Shown here: one piece after another, positions 903 to 60,612 of the stretch
Layout of the letters: every line of letters begins with the position of its first letter
How positions within the stretch are numbered: position 1 is the first letter of the stretch
From: a virus
Lineage: Duplodnaviria > Caudoviricetes
IMG/VR virus record: IMGVR_UViG_3300042987_001364
Span: 1-62,900 of that record
DNA: 62,900 bases
Strand: one strand, 5' to 3'
Program-made: the position numbers and the translations under genes
Notes under the pieces: generated by a model
Database searches by the model: none
Told to the model about the DNA's origin: nothing
The model's input: the letters and a program-made list of their open reading frames with translations, nothing else

Positions 903-1178
903 ATGGAAGAGATGACTGATCTGGAAGAAGTGTTGGCTGAGCGTGGCTCCAAGTACGGCGAGTTTTCAAAGAACTCTATGGTGAGCCAGTTGCTTAAATC
1001 AACTTTGTACAATGTTCCGCGAAATGCAGCGTTCTCCCACTATCAGCGGGAAGCGTTGGACATGATCGCCAATAAACTATCCAGGATTGTCTGCGGCGAC
1101 CCGAATTACGCCGACTCGTGGAGAGACATTGCTGGCTATGCCACGTTGGTGGCTGACATTCTTGAGTCTCGCAAATGA
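903..1178 (+). CDS. DUF6378-like small phage protein
   Basis: LAERGSKYGEF...KLSRIVCGDPNYADSWRDIAGYATL motif. Confidence 0.7.
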   Translation: MEEMTDLEEVLAERGSKYGEFSKNSMVSQLLKSTLYNVPRNAAFSHYQREALDMIANKLSRIVCGDPNYADSWRDIAGYATLVADILESRK

Positions 1179-3679
1179 GCGACTTGGCCGCGTTGATTTC
1201 TAAGCTGCCTGAGAATGAGCAACAGAAGTTGTTGGCTCAGGTAGGCGCATATAAAGAGGCGCTGGAGCGGGAGAAGGCGCAAGCGGACTTCATGGCGTTT
1301 GTGAAGATGATGTGGCCGTCGTTTATCCACGGTCGGCACCATGCTTTGATGGCGAAGAAGTTCGAGGAAATCGCGGCGGGGAAGGTGAAGAGACTCATCA
1401 TCAACATGGCCCCTCGGCACGCGATAAGGTTAGATATGAAGATACCAACATTGAACGGATGGAAAACGATGGCCGACTTATTGGTTGGCGATTATGTTTT
1501 CGGGCCTGATGGGATTCCAACAGAGGTAATTGGAAAATCAGAAGTGTTTCACGATAGAGACATTTATCGCGTGACTACGGATGATGGATTCAGCCTGGAT
1601 GTTGATGGCGAGCATCTTTGGACGGTTAGGTTGCACCGAAAGCACGATGTCTATCACGACTTCACGACTGAAGAGTTATGGCGTAGGCAGAACGGTGAAG
1701 TGCTGAGAATGGGTAGAGGTGGGAGCACACACTTCTTGGCGGGGCATGTCAAAAATCCACGATTGCCAAGATTGCCTGACGTGAATCCCGTCATTTACGA
1801 ACGGCAATCCTTGCCGATAGCACCCTATGTTCTTGGTGTATGGCTCGGTGATGGGCACAAGAATCAAGGGGTAATTACCTGTCACGATGACGATCAGGTT
1901 GGCATTCGGCAAATGTTCGAGGCGCTTGGGTACAGAACGACTGCCCAATCTACCCCGATGACGTTCGGAGTTTTGGGTCTAAAAGAAAAACTCCGCGATC
2001 TTGGTGTGTTAGGGAACAAACACATCCCGCAGGCGTATCTGATGGGTAGCGTAGATCAACGTAGATGGTTGCTCAAAGGTCTGATGGACACGGATGGCAA
2101 CGTGTCAAAAGCAGGTCAATGTTTCTTCGCGCAAAGCAACTTGAGTCTCATCAATCAAGTGCGCGAACTTCTAGCCAGCCTTGGGATTAAGAACTCATTG
2201 ATCTCTACCGAGGCAAAAATTGGAGACAAAAGCTACGGCAAGACATGGAGGATTAGCTTTTATGCTTCCAACATTGCTCATTTAGACAGGAAAGAAAATC
2301 GGACGATCAAGTACAAGCCAGCATTCGGAAGGTACATCAAAGTAGAAAAACTAAACGAAACTGGCAGTACGCAATGTATCAAGGTAGCTCGTCAAGACGG
2401 TTTGTTTTTGGCCGGAGAAGGCTACATTTGTACGCACAACACCAAATCCGAGTTTGGCTCGTTTCTTTTGCCGGCTTGGTTTTTAGGAAAGTACCCGGAG
2501 AAGAAAGTTATCCAATGTTCAAACACGGCGGAATTGGCTGTTGGCTTCGGACGGAAGGTTCGAAACCTGGTTGGGTCGGATCACTATAAGAAAGTGTTTC
2601 CGAGTGTTGATCTTCGGGCTGATAGCAAAGCGGCTGGACGCTGGGATACCTCGGGTGGGGGTAGCTATTTTGCTATCGGCGTTGGAGGTACGGTGACAGG
2701 TAAAGGTGCTGACCTTCTTATCATCGATGACCCGCACAGCGAGCAAGAGGCCAAGTTAGCCCAAGGCGACCCGACCGTATTTGACGGCGTGTATGAATGG
2801 TACACCTCCGGACCACGGCAACGTCTCCAGCCAGGGGCGGCCATTGTCGTAATTATGACTCGCTGGAGTGACAAGGACTTAACGGGCAAGATCATTAGGA
2901 ACTCACGACACGAGGACGAATGGGAAGTGATCGAGCTACCGGCCATCCTTCCATCGGGCGCACCTCTATGGCCTGAGTTCTGGAGTCTCGAAGAGCTTCT
3001 TGCTCTTAAAGAAGAGTTACCTTCCTACAAGTGGAACGCACAGTACCAGCAACAGCCGACTGGCGAAGCGGGTGCGATTATTAAGCGTGAGTGGTGGCGT
3101 ATATGGAATAAAGATCGTCCGCCTAATTGTGAATTCATTATCCAGTCTTGGGATACAGCCTTTACCAAAGGCGAGAGGTCGGACTATTCGGCCTGTACGA
3201 CTTGGGGTATTTTTAATCTTAACGAAGACCCCAATGATGTGAATATCATATTGCTGGATGCGTTTAAGGATAAATGGGAGTTCCCGGAATTAAAACAAGC
3301 AGCATTTAATTCGTGGAAAGAATGGGAGCCTGACGCATTTATTATTGAAGCGAAGGCAGCTGGGGCGCCGTTGATATTTGAGTTAAGGCGTATGGGTATT
3401 CCGGTTAGTGAATATACGCCATCGCGCGGTAATGACAAATTTGCGCGTCTCAATTCGGTTACAGATTTGTTTGCCTCGGGTAAAGTATGGGCACCGGACG
3501 CGAGGTGGGCTGATGAAGTAATTGAGGAAATGGCGAGATTTCCTAATGCGGAGCACGATGACTTATTGGATAGCTCGGTGCAGGCCCTCATCCGGTTTAG
3601 GCAGGGTGGATTTTTGCGGTTACAGACCGACGAGCCTGACGAGGAAATCGGATGGCGGCGAAAAAAGGCATATTATTGA
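1175..3679 (+). CDS. terL: Terminase large subunit, intein-containing (about 494 aa after splicing)
   Basis: Walker A INMAPRH|TKS split by an intein; Walker B LLIIDDP; nuclease motifs IIQSWDTA, IEAKAAG and HDDLLDS. Confidence 0.95.
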   Translation: MSDLAALISKLPENEQQKLLAQVGAYKEALEREKAQADFMAFVKMMWPSFIHGRHHALMAKKFEEIAAGKVKRLIINMAPRHAIRLDMKIPTLNGWKTMADLLVGDYVFGPDGIPTEVIGKSEVFHDRDIYRVTTDDGFSLDVDGEHLWTVRLHRKHDVYHDFTTEELWRRQNGEVLRMGRGGSTHFLAGHVKNPRLPRLPDVNPVIYERQSLPIAPYVLGVWLGDGHKNQGVITCHDDDQVGIRQMFEALGYRTTAQSTPMTFGVLGLKEKLRDLGVLGNKHIPQAYLMGSVDQRRWLLKGLMDTDGNVSKAGQCFFAQSNLSLINQVRELLASLGIKNSLISTEAKIGDKSYGKTWRISFYASNIAHLDRKENRTIKYKPAFGRYIKVEKLNETGSTQCIKVARQDGLFLAGEGYICTHNTKSEFGSFLLPAWFLGKYPEKKVIQCSNTAELAVGFGRKVRNLVGSDHYKKVFPSVDLRADSKAAGRWDTSGGGSYFAIGVGGTVTGKGADLLIIDDPHSEQEAKLAQGDPTVFDGVYEWYTSGPRQRLQPGAAIVVIMTRWSDKDLTGKIIRNSRHEDEWEVIELPAILPSGAPLWPEFWSLEELLALKEELPSYKWNAQYQQQPTGEAGAIIKREWWRIWNKDRPPNCEFIIQSWDTAFTKGERSDYSACTTWGIFNLNEDPNDVNIILLDAFKDKWEFPELKQAAFNSWKEWEPDAFIIEAKAAGAPLIFELRRMGIPVSEYTPSRGNDKFARLNSVTDLFASGKVWAPDARWADEVIEEMARFPNAEHDDLLDSSVQALIRFRQGGFLRLQTDEPDEEIGWRRKKAYY
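1421..2440 (+). mobile_element. Intein (340 aa, Ala1, class 3-type) with LAGLIDADG homing endonuclease
   Basis: Starts AIRLDMKIPTLNGWKTM; block B GEHLW; block F TQCIKV; ends ICTHN followed by Thr. LAGLIDADG motifs YVLGVWLGDG and LLKGLMDTDG. Confidence 0.92.
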
Positions 3680-3687
3680 GGTGAAGC

Positions 3688-6084
3688 ATGGCAACAAATT
3701 TTGACCGAGCGTTATACAGTGACGTGCCTCCACTAAATCTGGCTGAAGAGGCGCCAGAAATCGAAGTGGAAGTCGAATTTCCTGAAACATCACTTGGGAT
3801 TGACGGCCTTGAGATTAATCTTTCTTCAGAAGAAACAACGGCGGATGATTTTGATGGCAACTTGGCTGAGTTCATGGAGGAAGGTGCTCTTGAAAGCGTT
3901 GCTGGTGATCTTGTTGCTCTGGTGGATGCTGACATAAGCAGTCGCAAAGACTGGTCGGAGACATTCGTCAAAGGCTTAGAAGTTCTGGGGATGAAGTATG
4001 AAGAAAGAACAGAGCCATGGAACGGTGCCTGTGGTGTGTTTTCTACTGTGCTCACCGAAGCGGCAATTCGGTTTCAAAGTGAGTGTATTACCGAAACCTT
4101 CCCAGCAGCCGGCCCTGTTAAAACCCTCATCATCGGGGAAATAACCCAGCAAAAGACCGAAGCGTCAGAGCGTGTCAGAGATGACATGAACTACCAGCTT
4201 ACGGAGGTGATGCAAGAGTACCGCCCAGAACATGAGCGCGCACTGTTTAATCTTGGCCTGTCAGGAGCCGCGTTCAAAAAGGTCTATTTTGACCCGGCGC
4301 TTGATCGACAAGTATCCATGTACATCCCGGCTGAAGACATCATCATGCCGTATGGCTCGTCAGGCGTTCTCACCGCAGAGCGCGTGACCCACCTGATGCG
4401 CAAGACCAAGAACGAAATACGCAAACTGCAAGTAGCAGGCTTCTACCGCGACATCGATCTTGGCGAGCCAATCCAGATTCCGACTGATATCGAGAAGAAG
4501 AAAGCCGAGGAAGAAGGCTATTCAATCACAGATGACGAGCGTTATCAGATTCTCGAAATCCACGTCGATTACGACCTCCCCGGCTACGAGAACGAAGACG
4601 GAATTGCTCTGCCATATGTAATTACAATCGACCGTGGCAGCAACAAAGTTCTGGCAATTCGCAGGAACTACGCCGAAGATGACCCGACCTTCGCCAAACG
4701 TCAGCACTTCGTTCAATACACCTATATCCCTGGCTTCGGTGCGTACGGTTTTGGCCTGATCCATCTGATCGGTGGCTATGCCCGAGCGGGCACGATGCTC
4801 ATTCGGCAATTGATTGATGCCGGTTCCTTGGCAAATTTGCCCGGCGGATTGAAATCTCGCGGCCTGCGCGTCAAGGGTGACGACACGCCCATCGCCCCAG
4901 GTGAGTTCCGTGATGTGGATGTGCCGTCTGGGAGCATCCGGGACAACATCATGCCGTTGCCCTACAAGGAGCCAAGCCAAGTATTGATGGCACTTTTGGG
5001 CAATATCACCGAAGAAGCCCGAAGATTGGGTGCAATTTCGGACATGAAGATTAGCGACATGTCAGCGAATGCCCCAGTGGGTACGACGTTGGCATTGTTG
5101 GAACGGCAACTGAAGACCATGAGTGCGGTTCAGGCTCGTGTTCATTTCGCCATGAAGCAGGAATTCAAGCTGCTCAAGGCGATTATTCGTGATTTCACCC
5201 CAAGCCAGTACGAATACACGCCGGAGAAAGCCGACCGGAAGGCAAAACGCGAGGACTATGACCTCGTTGAAGTAATTCCGGTGAGCGATCCGAACAGCGC
5301 AACGATGGCGCAACGGATTATGCAGTACCAAGCGGCTATCCAATTGGCTCAAGGTGCGCCCCAAATCTACGATCTTCCTCAACTTCACCGCCAAATGCTC
5401 GAAGTTTTGGGTGTCAAGAACGCCGATAAGCTGGTGCCGCTTGAAGATGACATGAAACCGCGTGATCCGATCAGCGAAAACATGGCTTTCCTGTCCGGCA
5501 AACCCACGAAGGCGTTCATTTATCAGGATCACGACGCGCATATCGCGTGTCACATGTCGATGATGCAAGACCCGGTGCTGATGGCGCAGATTGGACAGTC
5601 TCCAATGGCCCAACAAATGCAGGCGGCGATTATGTCGCACGTGGCAGAGCACTTGGCATTCCTGTATCGCAAGCGTGTGGAAGAACAATTGGGTGTTCCG
5701 ATGCCAAAACCCAACGAAGAACTACCGGAAGACGTAGAAGTCCAGTTGTCGAGACTCGTGGCCCAGGCTGCAACACAGGTTTTGGCGCAAAGCAAGGGAC
5801 AAGCGGCACAGCAACAGGCCCAACAACAGGCACAAGACCCGCTTTTCCAGTTGCAACAACAGGAAATGCAGATCAAAGCGCAGGAAATCCAGAGAAAAGC
5901 CCAGAAAGACGCTCAAGACGGGCAAATTGCGCAGGCAAGACTGGCTTTGGAGTCGCAGCGCGCGGCAAATCAGGCCGAAGCAGACAGGTTGCGCATCGCG
6001 CTTCAGGCGCAACAACAGCAAGACGAGCAGGTACGCGATTTTGTCGATCGTATTACCGATATGCAATCACCCGAGACACGGTAA
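3688..6084 (+). CDS. Portal protein (P22-like, long Gln-rich coiled-coil C-terminus)
   Basis: 798 aa directly after terL; FKKVYFD motif; Q-rich helical tail. Confidence 0.85.
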   Translation: MATNFDRALYSDVPPLNLAEEAPEIEVEVEFPETSLGIDGLEINLSSEETTADDFDGNLAEFMEEGALESVAGDLVALVDADISSRKDWSETFVKGLEVLGMKYEERTEPWNGACGVFSTVLTEAAIRFQSECITETFPAAGPVKTLIIGEITQQKTEASERVRDDMNYQLTEVMQEYRPEHERALFNLGLSGAAFKKVYFDPALDRQVSMYIPAEDIIMPYGSSGVLTAERVTHLMRKTKNEIRKLQVAGFYRDIDLGEPIQIPTDIEKKKAEEEGYSITDDERYQILEIHVDYDLPGYENEDGIALPYVITIDRGSNKVLAIRRNYAEDDPTFAKRQHFVQYTYIPGFGAYGFGLIHLIGGYARAGTMLIRQLIDAGSLANLPGGLKSRGLRVKGDDTPIAPGEFRDVDVPSGSIRDNIMPLPYKEPSQVLMALLGNITEEARRLGAISDMKISDMSANAPVGTTLALLERQLKTMSAVQARVHFAMKQEFKLLKAIIRDFTPSQYEYTPEKADRKAKREDYDLVEVIPVSDPNSATMAQRIMQYQAAIQLAQGAPQIYDLPQLHRQMLEVLGVKNADKLVPLEDDMKPRDPISENMAFLSGKPTKAFIYQDHDAHIACHMSMMQDPVLMAQIGQSPMAQQMQAAIMSHVAEHLAFLYRKRVEEQLGVPMPKPNEELPEDVEVQLSRLVAQAATQVLAQSKGQAAQQQAQQQAQDPLFQLQQQEMQIKAQEIQRKAQKDAQDGQIAQARLALESQRAANQAEADRLRIALQAQQQQDEQVRDFVDRITDMQSPETR

Positions 6085-47120: not shown

Positions 47121-47276
47121 ATGAAACGCAAAATCTTAGTTGGCCTCGCCTTAGTCGGCATCCCGCTGGCGGCATGGGCTAACTGCACTCACTTCACGAT
47201 GATGGTCGGAGATCGTGTGGTGCCATGTACCATATGCTGCACACCAGAGGGTCAGTGCGTCACGCGCTGTTTCTAA
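47121..47276 (+). CDS. Secreted cysteine-rich peptide (51 aa, not in the ORF track)
   Basis: SD aagga; signal peptide MKRKILVGLALVGIPLAAWA; mature NCTHFTMMVGDRVVPCTICCTPEGQCVTRCF; hairpin at 47284-47305. Confidence 0.75.
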   Translation: MKRKILVGLALVGIPLAAWANCTHFTMMVGDRVVPCTICCTPEGQCVTRCF

Positions 47277-47375
47277 GCAACGCCCGCCCATCTCCGGGTG
47301 GGCGGTCTGAAGTTCTAGCAGAAACCTCATAGAACCTTATAGAACTCCCATAGAGACTCATAGAAGTAAAAAAAG

Positions 47376-47417
47376 TTACGTCACCCTCTTGACGTAATAC
47401 GTGAGGTTAGGCAAGAT
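47376..47417 (+). promoter_or_regulatory. Promoter with overlapping palindromic operator
   Basis: TTGACG (47389)-N17-CAAGAT; inverted repeat TTACGTCA-N6-TGACGTAA at 47376-47397. Confidence 0.6.
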
Positions 47418-47423
47418 TTCTCC

Positions 47424-47580
47424 TGTTGGGCGGCATCCCAACAATGTCTATAGGAACAATAACTTACCCCAGAATGTTCAAGTGGGGCATGTGTAATCAG
47501 TGGTGCGTTGTTCCTATCGCATTGTTGGTTGCCCATGCCAGGGCCATGCCCCACTTAAGCACTCTGGGGTTTTTGCTTTT
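47424..47580 (+). ncRNA. Antisense/attenuator RNA: long stem plus U-tract, loop complementary to the upstream leader
   Basis: 25-bp stem 47467-91/47545-69 then TTTTTGCTTTT; loop 47508-33 pairs with 47432-59. Confidence 0.7.
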
Positions 47581-47581
47581 C

Positions 47582-47959
47582 TGGCTCGCTTCAACTCGGC
47601 TTCTGTTTAAGAGTCACTTAAGTCCCGATACCTCGGGTAGGAACTGAGTAACCGTAAAGCGTCATGGCGGCGGCGAAAGGGTAGTACCTTAGGACGGACG
47701 TATGGAAACGGTGGGCAGTAGCTTAAAGCTGGAACAATCGCACCAGACCAGCAAGAGCGGGATGCACTCAAAGTATCGAGTGGCGCAGTGCTCGGTGTGA
47801 GCCTCCTGATAGGCAAAAGACTGCGACTCAACACGGGTTAGGCCGGGGTTGAGCGATGGGGTGACTCAGCGGATACCTAATCTAGCATGAGCCATTGGAT
47901 ACATCCCGAGGGTTGCCTTCGTAGGCTGCCCTTGGGAAGGTTTTGCCCAGAGTTCCTAT
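47582..47959 (+). ncRNA. Candidate long structured RNA
   Basis: No convincing ORF; many helices including TGGCTC/GAGCCA, GAGTCAC/GTGACTC, CGCAGT/ACTGCG and TAGGAACT/AGTTCCTA. Confidence 0.55.
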
Positions 47960-48003
47960 GCGTTTCCTATCCCGCATGCCACGTGATCCTGACGAGACTG
48001 AAT

Positions 48004-48426
48004 ATGCGAGTCGACTTAAACGTACCGTATGCTGAAAAAGAGAGTGCCAAAAGATTAGGCGCTAGATGGGATGCAATCAAAAAGACTTGGTATGTGATCG
48101 ACGCTGTGGAGTTGTGGCCGTTCATGAAGTGGATGCCTGCTCATCTTAAGCGGCCTGTTAAGAACACTCAGCCTACAGCACAGACCAAGACGGCTAAACG
48201 AAGTAAGCAAGTGAAGTCTAAGAAGGCTTATGAGAACGCCATGAACAGACTGGCACAGAAGAACGCGAGTCTGATTGTTGGCCCGATGACTTCACGAACG
48301 GACTTCTCTTTACCTGACACGGGTTGTTCGTGTCCGCCGTGGGAGGAATGCGAACACGTTCTACGGGCTAGAGTTGAAGTCAGTCCTGAGCAGTTAAGTC
48401 ATATCAGGTCGATCATCAACGGGTAG
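48004..48426 (+). CDS. DUF5710-domain protein
   Basis: LNVPYAEKESAKRLGARWD...KKTWY; start ATG 48004 preferred over 47887. Confidence 0.75.
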   Translation: MRVDLNVPYAEKESAKRLGARWDAIKKTWYVIDAVELWPFMKWMPAHLKRPVKNTQPTAQTKTAKRSKQVKSKKAYENAMNRLAQKNASLIVGPMTSRTDFSLPDTGCSCPPWEECEHVLRARVEVSPEQLSHIRSIING

Positions 48427-48663: not shown

Positions 48664-48786
48664 CCAACACGCATGAGTATTGGAGTCCGAGGGGGCGCGA
48701 ACCCTTGGTAAGCCAGTTAATAATTCCGACAGTCCTAGGAAACTTCGAATGAAACTGACCAGATAGCCAGTACTCAGCCGTGTTGG
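48664..48786 (+). ncRNA. Three-way-junction RNA motif, copy 1
   Basis: CCAACACG-ca-TGAGTATTGG ... CCAGTACTCA-gc-CGTGTTGG; covaries with copy 2. Confidence 0.75.
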
Positions 48787-48897
48787 TGTAGCTCAACTGA
48801 AAGCTGGCATATATTGAAACCAGCTAGTCGGCAGACGAAAGATAGAGCGGCCTCGGCAGGGGACGGTTGCGGGTTTGAATCCCGTCATCAACAACCA
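48781..48897 (+). ncRNA. tRNA-like RNA lacking an anticodon, with expanded D-loop
   Basis: 8-bp acceptor, TA, D-stem GCTC/GAGC, T-arm GCGGG-TTTGAAT-CCCGT, A-CCA end; anticodon loop replaced by a GGCA tetraloop. Confidence 0.75.
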
Positions 48898-60096: not shown

Positions 60097-60612
60097 TCAG
60101 CGATTCGAGAAAATCCACAGATCGCCATGCCGACCAGCCGTGCAATAATCATGACGAAGGTTACTGTCCCACGAATCTTGCCAGTCAATGACGATCCAGC
60201 ACGGTAAGTCTTTCGGAACCGCGCCAGACTCTTCTGCAATCTGCTGGGCAGCATCCGCGCCAGAATCGAACCGGCCCCAGAATGCTTCACGGGCATTCTC
60301 TATCGTTAGTTCGGTGATGTCGTACCCGGTTGCCTCAGCGTACTTTTCCAGCAACTCGCGGTCATAGTCATCAAGCTCCAGCCATTCAAACAATTCTTCG
60401 GGCAGGCCGCTTTCAGAGTAAAACTCACGCGGGAAACATTGGAAATCTTGAAACATAAATTCAGGGTCAGCTTCGTCCGAATGCAGCTCGGCGCATGCGG
60501 CATAGAAGCCCTCGCGGTCTCCTGCGTAGTCTTCGAGATTGATCCACGCGCCCTTGATACTGCCCGAGTTATATTTGGCATAGGTGCCGACGTATACAGA
60601 TGGTGTTTCCAT
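60097..60612 (-). CDS. ardA: ArdA antirestriction protein
   Basis: VYVGTYAKYNSGSIKGAWINL...EFMFQD; highly acidic; SD ggagat. Confidence 0.9.
   Translation of the reverse strand: METPSVYVGTYAKYNSGSIKGAWINLEDYAGDREGFYAACAELHSDEADPEFMFQDFQCFPREFYSESGLPEELFEWLELDDYDRELLEKYAEATGYDITELTIENAREAFWGRFDSGADAAQQIAEESGAVPKDLPCWIVIDWQDSWDSNLRHDYCTAGRHGDLWIFSNR

Follow-up and report, generated by a model that had tools for sequence, protein, structure and literature searches.

Regulation by an antisense RNA encoded on the same strand as its target is, to our knowledge, known in very few systems, namely C4 of phages P1 and P7 and CI of phage P4 (one Rfam clan). In the heteroimmunity of P1 and P7, the specificity words differ between the related phages. 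The plasmids pT181, pIP501 and pAMbeta1 use an antisense RNA transcribed from the opposite strand, with full complementarity to its target; it binds the nascent leader and blocks an early alternative pairing, so that a terminator forms. The CI RNA of the satellite phage P4, according to passages of PMC4825925, comes from the leader, arises by processing of the primary transcript and base-pairs there with seqA and seqC, so that transcription terminates before it reaches the replication genes, and C4 of P1 is described in part of PMC8198154 as blocking downstream genes in its own operon. We analyzed a leader region of a phage genome (Caudoviricetes; IMG/VR record IMGVR_UViG_3300042987_001364, positions 1-62,900; this whole stretch of 62,900 nt is called the window below), in which a long hairpin with a U-tract precedes a large structured non-coding RNA. 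A first-pass annotation of the window had interpreted the hairpin as a same-strand antisense switch, whose two loop words, a' and b' (TTGCCCA), mimic the 3' end of the downstream RNA. Our results indicate that the hairpin belongs to a family in which a leader segment (the address, A) and a segment of the hairpin loop (A') are complementary in every member and change together, much faster than the rest of the element. The region is best explained as the leader of the rightward early operon of the phage, holding a member of an uncatalogued RNA family.

The hairpin and the leader preceding it are composed of the following parts.

47424..47443, + strand: leader hairpin P0, a 7-bp stem (47424-30/47437-43) with the loop CGGCAU
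47438..47459, + strand: A, the address (target) of the leader, made up of the blocks CCAACAATG (47438-46) and ATAGGAACAA (47450-59)
47467..47491, + strand: B, the 5' arm of the stem, supported by covariation (helices 3 and 4)
47495..47530, + strand: apical hairpin of the minimum-free-energy (MFE) folds, the 10-nt terminal loop of which is A' (TTGTTCCTAT, 47508-17)
47528..47545, + strand: invariant motif GTTGCCCA-N-GCCA-(N)-GGGCC, which includes b' and a mini-hairpin (GCCC 47531-34/GGGC 47541-44)
47545..47569, + strand: B', the 3' arm of the stem, supported by the script check and covariation
47570..47584, + strand: U-tract (TTTTT, 47570-74) and CUUUUGG-like tail, conserved in alignment columns 213-224

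A script check located all ten words quoted by the first-pass annotation, together with the 25-bp stem, where the annotation had placed them. The stem arms form 22 Watson-Crick pairs and one G-U pair, with two mismatches (A47474/C47562 and C47479/A47557). Segment A is complementary to positions 47508-28, with its second complementary block, CATTGTTGG (47520-28), in the 3' arm of the apical hairpin, and its 3' end lies 7 nt short of the stem. The complementarity of ATAGGAACAA and CCAACAATG to the loop holds as the annotation had claimed, whereas its third upstream target, TGGGCGG, and part of CCAACAATG are arms of P0 and are not free. A G+C-rich stem directly followed by a U-tract, the arrangement of an intrinsic terminator, is kept in all 19 aligned members, and the U-tract is the presumed termination point; a terminator scan, the limits of which were 20 pairs and an 8-nt loop, omitted the 25-bp stem.

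Homologues were collected in several ways. An nhmmer search of 80 loci gathered via the exonuclease gene returned loci L064 and L027 first, followed by L062, L059 and L053. The pattern GTTGCCCA-N(1,2)-GCCA-N(0,2)-GGGCC occurred in 64 stretches of viral contigs, from which 30 loci with the stem and U-tract were obtained, giving 22 distinct hairpins together with the window; with a stricter pattern we retrieved 15 metagenome loci, each with the hairpin and the U-tract (by eye). A profile built from alignment A1 matched 45 loci on 40 distinct phage or metagenome contigs, not counting the window, and only 5 of the 80 exonuclease-derived loci were among these matches; with the window, the family comprises 41 contigs of uncultivated phages. 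The window matched this profile, which includes the window itself, with 86.8 bits (E = 2.8e-26). The order of parts in the family is, from 5' to 3', promoter, P0 (loop UGGCA in the relatives in alignment A1), variable A, long stem, apical hairpin, mini-hairpin (GUUGCCCA-N-GCCAAGGGCC), 3' arm and tail (GGGGUUUUU followed by the conserved CUUUUGG), and the window has P0, A, the long stem, the apical A', GUUGCCCA-N-GCCA-GGGCC and the U-tract.

The stem and P0 are conserved RNA helices. In the alignment of 19 members, 93.6% of the cells form standard pairs, compared with 80.0% in shuffled alignments (reached in none of 500) and 28-53% in slid controls. Changes on both sides were found in 18 of 39 pairs, including 10 of 17 in the main helix and two of four in P0 (helix 1), in which 93% of the cells pair. 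Since G-U pairs are frequent, the structure belongs to the RNA of the + strand. The mini-hairpin (helix 6) never varies and is thus uninformative on pairing either way. The data neither favour nor exclude a kissing interaction of the P0 loop (UGGC) with the mini-hairpin loop (GCCA); of its five pairs, three never vary, one is U-A in 18 of 19 members, and the last fails to pair in 9 of 19. As a separate observation, CUGAUGAG ... CGAAAC at 10940-10990 of L062, about 150 nt 5' of the hairpin promoter, resembles the core of a hammerhead ribozyme by eye, and Rfam reported no hammerhead in L062 at the gathering score or at E <= 5.

To compare A with A', we took from each of 16 representatives the 27 nt at the 3' end of the leader, along with the apical region, and counted the longest Watson-Crick run; such exact runs replaced RNAduplex energies, which were confounded by G+C-rich flanks. 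Runs between a leader and its own loop averaged 8.4 nt (range 6-11), compared with 4.7 nt in 240 non-cognate combinations. The local score between leader and loop in the window was 32, and none of 1000 shuffles (mean 12.2, sd 2.3) reached it. The address differs wholly among the members (ATAGGAACAA in the window, ACGCTAATG in L027, GAATCTCGG in L144, GAAAAAGG in L151, GCGTTTAGG in L180 and TACACATCAAA in L184), and it differs even between close relatives: L151 and L180 are identical at 5 of 10 positions of A, 7 of 12 of A' and 120 of 123 of the remainder, and the values for L062 and L053 are 6 of 9, 5 of 10 and 119 of 120, respectively. Four different 7-nt cores occupy one loop position in the lake-metagenome group G4, and L140 and L165 differ within the core by a compensated change from G-C to A-U. 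We also compared contigs of the sequencing runs X3-X6 with the window over the covered parts of 47300-48100. The X4 contig spans 47410-47585, and the changes listed for it are concentrated in two places, the leader (47441-60) and the loop (47513-20); among them, the deletion of G47453 and the change G47454>T are matched at their partners by the deletion of C47513 and the change C47514>A. Of the co-variation that the first-pass annotation had suggested checking in related phages, that of a' with its upstream target is thus supported; b' is invariant across the family.

The position of A relative to the stem bears on how A and A' could pair. The linker from A to the first pair of the stem is 1-16 nt long (1-8 nt in 14 of the 16 representatives), and A' begins 37-68 nt into the hairpin, past at least 25 bp of helix. 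We infer that a single molecule cannot have the A:A' helix and the full stem at the same time, because a linker of 1-8 nt is too short to span the stem to its tip, and because a strand cannot pair over more than about one turn with a loop that another helix closes while this other helix stays shut. If the two helices exclude each other, either a switch between folds or pairing in trans should be expected. When the nascent RNA was folded up to A', the MFE structures contained all or nearly all of the A:A' pairs in 15 of the 16 representatives (10 of 10 in the window). In the MFE structures of the complete element, the long stem was formed, and half or more of A' was unpaired in 14 of the 16 representatives and all or nearly all of it in 8; in the window, all 10 nucleotides of A' were unpaired and constituted exactly the 10-nt terminal loop. 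These predicted structures suggest an early fold with A:A' and a late fold with the stem, the U-tract and a displayed A', or alternatively pairing between molecules.

Covariance models did not bear out a relationship to the C4-type RNAs, which the first-pass annotation had raised. The models of C4 (RF01695, gathering score 45 bits), c4-a1b1 and isrK gave no match at E <= 10 in 47250-48100 and none at the gathering score in the entire window, and at the gathering score or E <= 10 Rfam returned only a tRNA, a weak tRNA-like match and noise for the window; as a positive control, phage P4 searched with the same library gave C4 at 74.9 bits, isrK (RF01394) at 60.8 bits and c4-a1b1 (RF03163) at 44.1 bits. 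The order of target, antisense and target on one transcript, which the annotation had adopted from P1, P7 and P4, was recovered for the upstream target and the loop antisense, whereas the downstream target is not general.

In form, the element resembles the P4 and C4 RNAs in having an outer stem around two inner hairpins, one with a large or variable loop, although the inner hairpins of the window are in the reverse order relative to the C4 consensus. As in P4, antisense and target are on the same strand in the same leader, 5' of replication genes. The element differs from the P4 system in that it shares no sequence or covariance-model similarity, bears its own terminator-like U-tract whereas CI RNA is processed (as passages of PMC4825925 describe), has an upstream target alone as a general feature (a site like seqC is seen in at best 2 of 15 relatives), and has a target abutting the stem, so that pairing in cis sterically competes with the stem. 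Two short complementary words upstream on the same transcript are shared with C4 of P1 and P7; in contrast, the controlled unit here starts with a large non-coding RNA instead of icd/ant, no target in the window overlaps a ribosome-binding site, and b' is invariant in the family and is not a specificity word. The logic that we propose below is that of pT181-type attenuation, except that the repressor would be made by termination of transcripts from the same promoter, with complementarity limited to a short address. We regard the element as a non-homologous variant of the same-strand antisense logic, for which the mechanism set out below is a proposal.

We tentatively favour, at somewhat less than even confidence, the explanation that the leader hairpin provides feedback and superinfection control through antitermination by A:A' pairing in cis and through a terminated hairpin RNA acting in trans. 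During transcription, A would pair with A' before the 3' arm is made, closing the 5' arm in a loop and hindering the terminator, so that RNA polymerase would read through into the large non-coding RNA and the early genes. Transcripts that terminate would yield free, stable hairpin RNAs, about 150 nt long, in which A' is exposed. These RNAs would bind A in trans on nascent leaders with the same address, the A:A' pairing in cis would be blocked, the terminator would form and the operon would be switched off. Such feedback and superinfection control would be of the P4 CI or pT181 type, with the address as a specificity determinant under diversifying selection, and the wholesale replacement of the address in nearly identical relatives is what is expected of such a determinant.

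Several points weigh against this explanation. Termination, read-through and the released hairpin RNA are all predicted from the sequence, and the exclusion between A:A' and the stem is geometric reasoning, neither computed nor measured. The nascent fold of L129 contains none of the 10 A:A' pairs. A released RNA would contain A as well as A' and might undergo self-titration if the leader were not cleaved off, and no processing signal was identified. The putative -10 element CAAGAT agrees with the consensus at three of six positions, and a consensus promoter scan of the region called no promoter. A helix that acts purely in cis and is not tied to a particular sequence could also show rapid co-variation. 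A cultivable host is not known; across 185,579 species' genomes the pattern matched once, inside a coding region, and this match was judged to be due to chance. An 'immunity' in the lysogenic sense has no support, because no match to an integrase or a repressor was found among the 28 open reading frames (ORFs) scanned.

It is possible, though we are inclined to doubt it, that uncultivated freshwater phages possess an RNA-only, self-addressed exclusion or immunity, in which the terminated hairpin is the trans repressor with an address of 7-19 nt. If this is true, co-infecting genomes of the same address would terminate before the early and replication genes and the large non-coding RNA (Betaproteobacteria-1 and others), the addresses would diversify like immunity specificities, and the antiterminator would act by a topological clash with the terminator stem without sharing nucleotides with it. 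As a same-strand antisense system, the element would be an independent invention of that logic, and its specificity segment shows textbook co-variation and rapid turnover. The orphan Betaproteobacteria-1 RNA gains a defined upstream partner and a regulatory context, and the natural pairs L151/L180 and L062/L053, which differ almost solely in the address, are ready-made reagents for studying the specificity of RNA-RNA recognition and terminator control.

Among the alternatives, the one that survives best is a kinetic attenuator or folding switch acting only in cis, in which co-transcriptional A:A' pairing sets the level of read-through, possibly tuned by a bound factor or by how fast the polymerase moves, no trans RNA is involved, and the address varies as only its complementarity is constrained. 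We consider it a serious contender, though a rather unlikely one. It draws on the same structural evidence as the explanation with a trans-acting RNA, a released RNA bearing its own target speaks against a free antisense RNA, and no second target was found anywhere in the genome: the loop had 31 complementary 9-mers in the 62.9-kb genome, compared with 23.8 +/- 7.5 for shuffled loops (45 trivial self-matches excluded), and two near-complete relatives had A and A' only, with one extra 9-mer at the chance level. Against it, the address is swapped wholesale, with A and A' 50-67% identical where the rest is 98-99% identical, and this turnover exceeds the expectation for a merely unconstrained helix, since the neighbouring unpaired linkers and tails are nearly identical.

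Most of the remaining alternatives involve the RNA downstream of the hairpin, in which the following features were recognized.

47585..47995, + strand: large structured non-coding RNA of about 410 nt, running to the first gene, with no Rfam match
47712..47718, + strand: UGGGCAG, complementary to the invariant UUGCCCA and to UUUGCCCA (47942-49)
47731..47745, + strand: candidate downstream target GGAACAATCGCACCA, complementary to loop positions 47501-14 with one bulge
47943..47977, + strand: loop words repeated in the same sense, namely TTGCCCA (47943-49) and GTTCCTAT (47952-59), plus a gapped repeat of loop positions 47504-22 (47959-77)

The region 47424-47959 folds better than all of 100 shuffles (z = -3.7). 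A homologue of the large RNA was found on one other IMG/VR contig, which was retrieved twice (L052 and L087), and near-identical stretches are present on contigs of runs X4-X6; two patterns of conserved blocks of the large RNA found 8 and 33 viral-contig stretches, among which the profile matched L087 only. The hairpin of L052 is unrelated in sequence and has the same topology, GTAGCGGCA ... CCCTCAGGCCTC ... TGCCGCTAC ... GAGGCCTGAGGG, followed by a U-tract. A consensus fold of the two large RNAs (26 of 66 pairs changed on both sides) was not relied on (n = 2, with an alignment differing from that of nhmmer).

In eight relatives (L062, L059, L053, L144, L156, L180, L151 and L178), the Betaproteobacteria-1 RNA (RF02932) starts 5-10 nt past the hairpin tail, with scores of 55.7-98.9 bits (threshold 49.4 bits). 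The large RNA of the window contains consensus words of Betaproteobacteria-1, GGGUAGGAA-like and GGCGGCGAAAG (by eye), whereas it is about 3.5 times longer and did not match RF02932 even at E <= 10. In other members, different structured RNAs of roughly 230-430 nt follow the hairpin and precede either an ORF directly or a separate strong promoter with palindromes. The types of hairpin and of downstream RNA are shuffled relative to each other, and the RNA classes are apparently unrelated. No Betaproteobacteria-1 RNA was found in those genomes that were searched out of 151 sampled from one class, a result that says little because 14 control genomes were also silent. The main text of PMC5737381 makes no mention of the Betaproteobacteria-1 motif, and literature searches on Betaproteobacteria-1 and c4-a1b1 yielded no description of this hairpin. 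As a separate observation, a module of about 100 nt (GGTGGTGAATGCGTAGGCTGATGCGCGG ... GCCGGAGATCAGC ... CCACCACC) follows the hairpin in L064 (4770-4880, - strand) and L129 and precedes the promoter in L027 (4020-4110, - strand); it may be a mobile structured insert.

It has also to be considered that the hairpin and the downstream RNA are parts of one large RNA, in which the 5' domain would dock with the 3' domain through UUGCCCA and UGGGCA, A and A' of different molecules would pair head to tail into dimers or multimers, and the U-tract would be a linker; on present evidence this is unlikely. Twelve of the 15 downstream RNAs contain the motif UGGG(C/U)A, compared with 0.16-0.36 expected per sequence and one occurrence on the opposite strand, although these occurrences are not independent if the classes of downstream RNA are homologous; the motif hints at a conserved contact with UUGCCCA, in which the variation between C and U keeps a G-C or G-U pair. 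Multimers would also agree with A:A' being unable to form in cis with the stem intact and with the conservation of the tail 3' of the U-tract, and RNA-only assemblies of large phage-linked RNAs are reported (bioRxiv 10.1101/2024.12.08.627333). On the other side, the downstream RNAs comprise several apparently unrelated classes shuffled relative to the hairpin types, L062 and L135 lack UGGGYA, and a G+C-rich stem with U5 after it typifies intrinsic terminators.

Similarly improbable is the model of the first-pass annotation, in which a' and b' would compete with the 3' words at 47943-59 for targets at 47638-44 (TAGGAAC), 47712-18 (TGGGCAG) and 47731-37 (GGAACAA), thereby switching the fold of the long RNA. 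The statistics of the window alone are borderline (p about 0.01-0.03): 34 of 2000 shuffles had same-sense copies of the two words next to each other, 36 of 2000 had neighbouring complementary pairs, and 30 of 1000 reached the gapped 3' copy at 47959-77. The word GGAACAA widens to a match of 14 of 15 positions at 47731-45, whose score of 23 was reached by 8 of 1000 shuffles (z = 4.7 relative to non-cognate loops). The target GGAACAATCGCACCA lies largely in the loop of a hairpin with the stem GCTGG (47728-32)/CCAGC (47748-52), which co-varies with L052 (GCUGG/CCAGC versus GCCGG/CCGGC, by eye), and GGGCA (47713-17) and UGCCC (47944-48) are still pairable in L052 as GGGUA/UGCCC (by eye).

The relatives speak against this model. 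In the 800 nt downstream of the hairpin of 15 relatives, the longest run complementary to the loop was 7.3 nt for cognate and 7.05 nt for non-cognate combinations, and same-sense copies measured 7.4 and 7.3 nt, respectively, so that the co-variation expected of the downstream targets and 3' copies was not seen; TAGGAAC and TGGGCAG are 7-mers, a length expected by chance in 800 nt. When gaps were allowed in the local alignment, just two of the 15 stood out from the background, namely the window (score 23, z = 4.7) and L184 (score 19, z = 6.1), and GGAACAATCGCACCA is not a family-wide target. L052 retains GGGTAGGAA and GGTTTTGCCC despite its unrelated hairpin and lacks GTTCCTAT; the retained words are therefore a property of the large RNA and independent of the loop, so that a role of TAGGAAC and UUUUGCCC as loop-dependent words is not supported. 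In the X4 contig, where the loop word is changed, TAGGAAC has become TAGGAAA, which is not compensating, and none of the changes listed is in the 3' copy. Competition of the loop with the 3' end of the long RNA is thus possible in this lineage only.

The genomic setting is as follows. The 62.9-kb phage record is complete and bears direct terminal repeats, and an ORF scan found a terminase, a capsid protein, a helicase and a Toprim protein among the encoded products. To the left of the leader region are a leftward operon with ERF and PD-(D/E)XK exonuclease genes, and a rightward endonuclease-like ORF (PHROG match), a tRNA-Thr and a 51-aa ORF. The interval 47.3-48.0 kb, which holds the hairpin and the large RNA, is poor in ORFs and is bounded on the right by the DUF5710 gene, from which the rightward operon reaches the helicase and Toprim genes near 57-59 kb. 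ORFs of 73 and 75 aa cross the region; the 73-aa ORF had no match in a scan against Pfam, and the indels in the alignment of the large RNA with L052 are not multiples of three. A blastn search of 47280-48010 against 50,697 phage records gave no match, a search for relatives via the DUF5710 gene gave one locus without synteny, and none of the sequencing runs listed as holding the region is an RNA run. Upstream of the hairpin and at the start of the operon, the following features were noted.

47328..47366, + strand: four phased direct repeats (C/T)ATAGA(A/G), spaced by 10, 11 and 10 bp (read from the sequence)
47376..47397, either strand: perfect 8-bp inverted repeat TTACGTCA-N6-TGACGTAA, overlapping the -35 hexamer and operator-like in appearance
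47389..47417, + strand: putative promoter with the -35 hexamer TTGACG (47389-94), a 17-nt spacer and the weak -10 hexamer CAAGAT (47412-17)
48004..48426, + strand: gene that opens the rightward operon; its product has an N-terminal DUF5710 domain (Pfam PF18974, E = 8.4e-18)

Transcription would start near 47424. A promoter before the stem had been assumed in the first-pass annotation; its -35 hexamer is present, and a TTGAC(A)-like hexamer at a comparable distance is readable in the flanks of most relatives (by eye), whereas the -10 element is poor. The direct repeats stop about 20 bp short of the -35 hexamer and are possibly a protein-binding array, either iterons or an activator site. The consensus scan listed the inverted repeat TTACGTCA/TGACGTAA as a terminator-like site on the minus strand. 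In related phages, strong TTGACA promoters with palindromes of the CTAGATGTAG/CTACATCTAG type adjoin the non-coding RNA region (L064 at about 4400-4460, L027 at about 3380-3440 and L052 at about 2890-2930, all on the - strand), and these palindromes are likely operators of a common repressor.

This setting bears on a further alternative, which we regard as quite improbable, that the untranslated RNA of about 520 nt is a ColE1-like pre-primer or origin-activating transcript, the fold of which would be set by the hairpin RNA at its 5' end, with the address as an incompatibility determinant. A long structured untranslated RNA does head an operon of replication genes, the phased repeats (47328-66) lie directly upstream, the first gene has a DUF5710 domain, and the hypervariable 7-nt loop cores recall the loops of RNA I and RNA II. 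However, no origin was identified, the cumulative GC skew does not turn at this site, and in the relatives the downstream RNA can measure only about 230 nt, with either an ORF immediately behind it or a promoter of its own for what comes next. Least credible of all is an ordinary intrinsic terminator or small-RNA gene with incidental matches between leader and loop, which would account for the G+C-rich stem with its U-tract and is already contradicted by the cognate-specific complementarity in 16 of 16 representatives, the co-variation at the level of segments and the leader-loop score of the window, which no shuffle reached.

Three further observations were made elsewhere in the window. The Rfam tRNA match at 48782-48893 (31.2 bits) is spread across 112 nt, with recognizable acceptor and T arms and an insertion of about 40 nt midway, and ARAGORN makes no call there; it may be an interrupted tRNA or a tRNA-like RNA. 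The ORF of the large terminase (1175-3676) contains a LAGLIDADG-like domain at residues 294-350, which suggests an intein or the insertion of a homing endonuclease. Finally, the ORF at 60100-60612 (- strand) matches PHROG families of anti-restriction proteins (phrog_2059, E = 5.6e-15).

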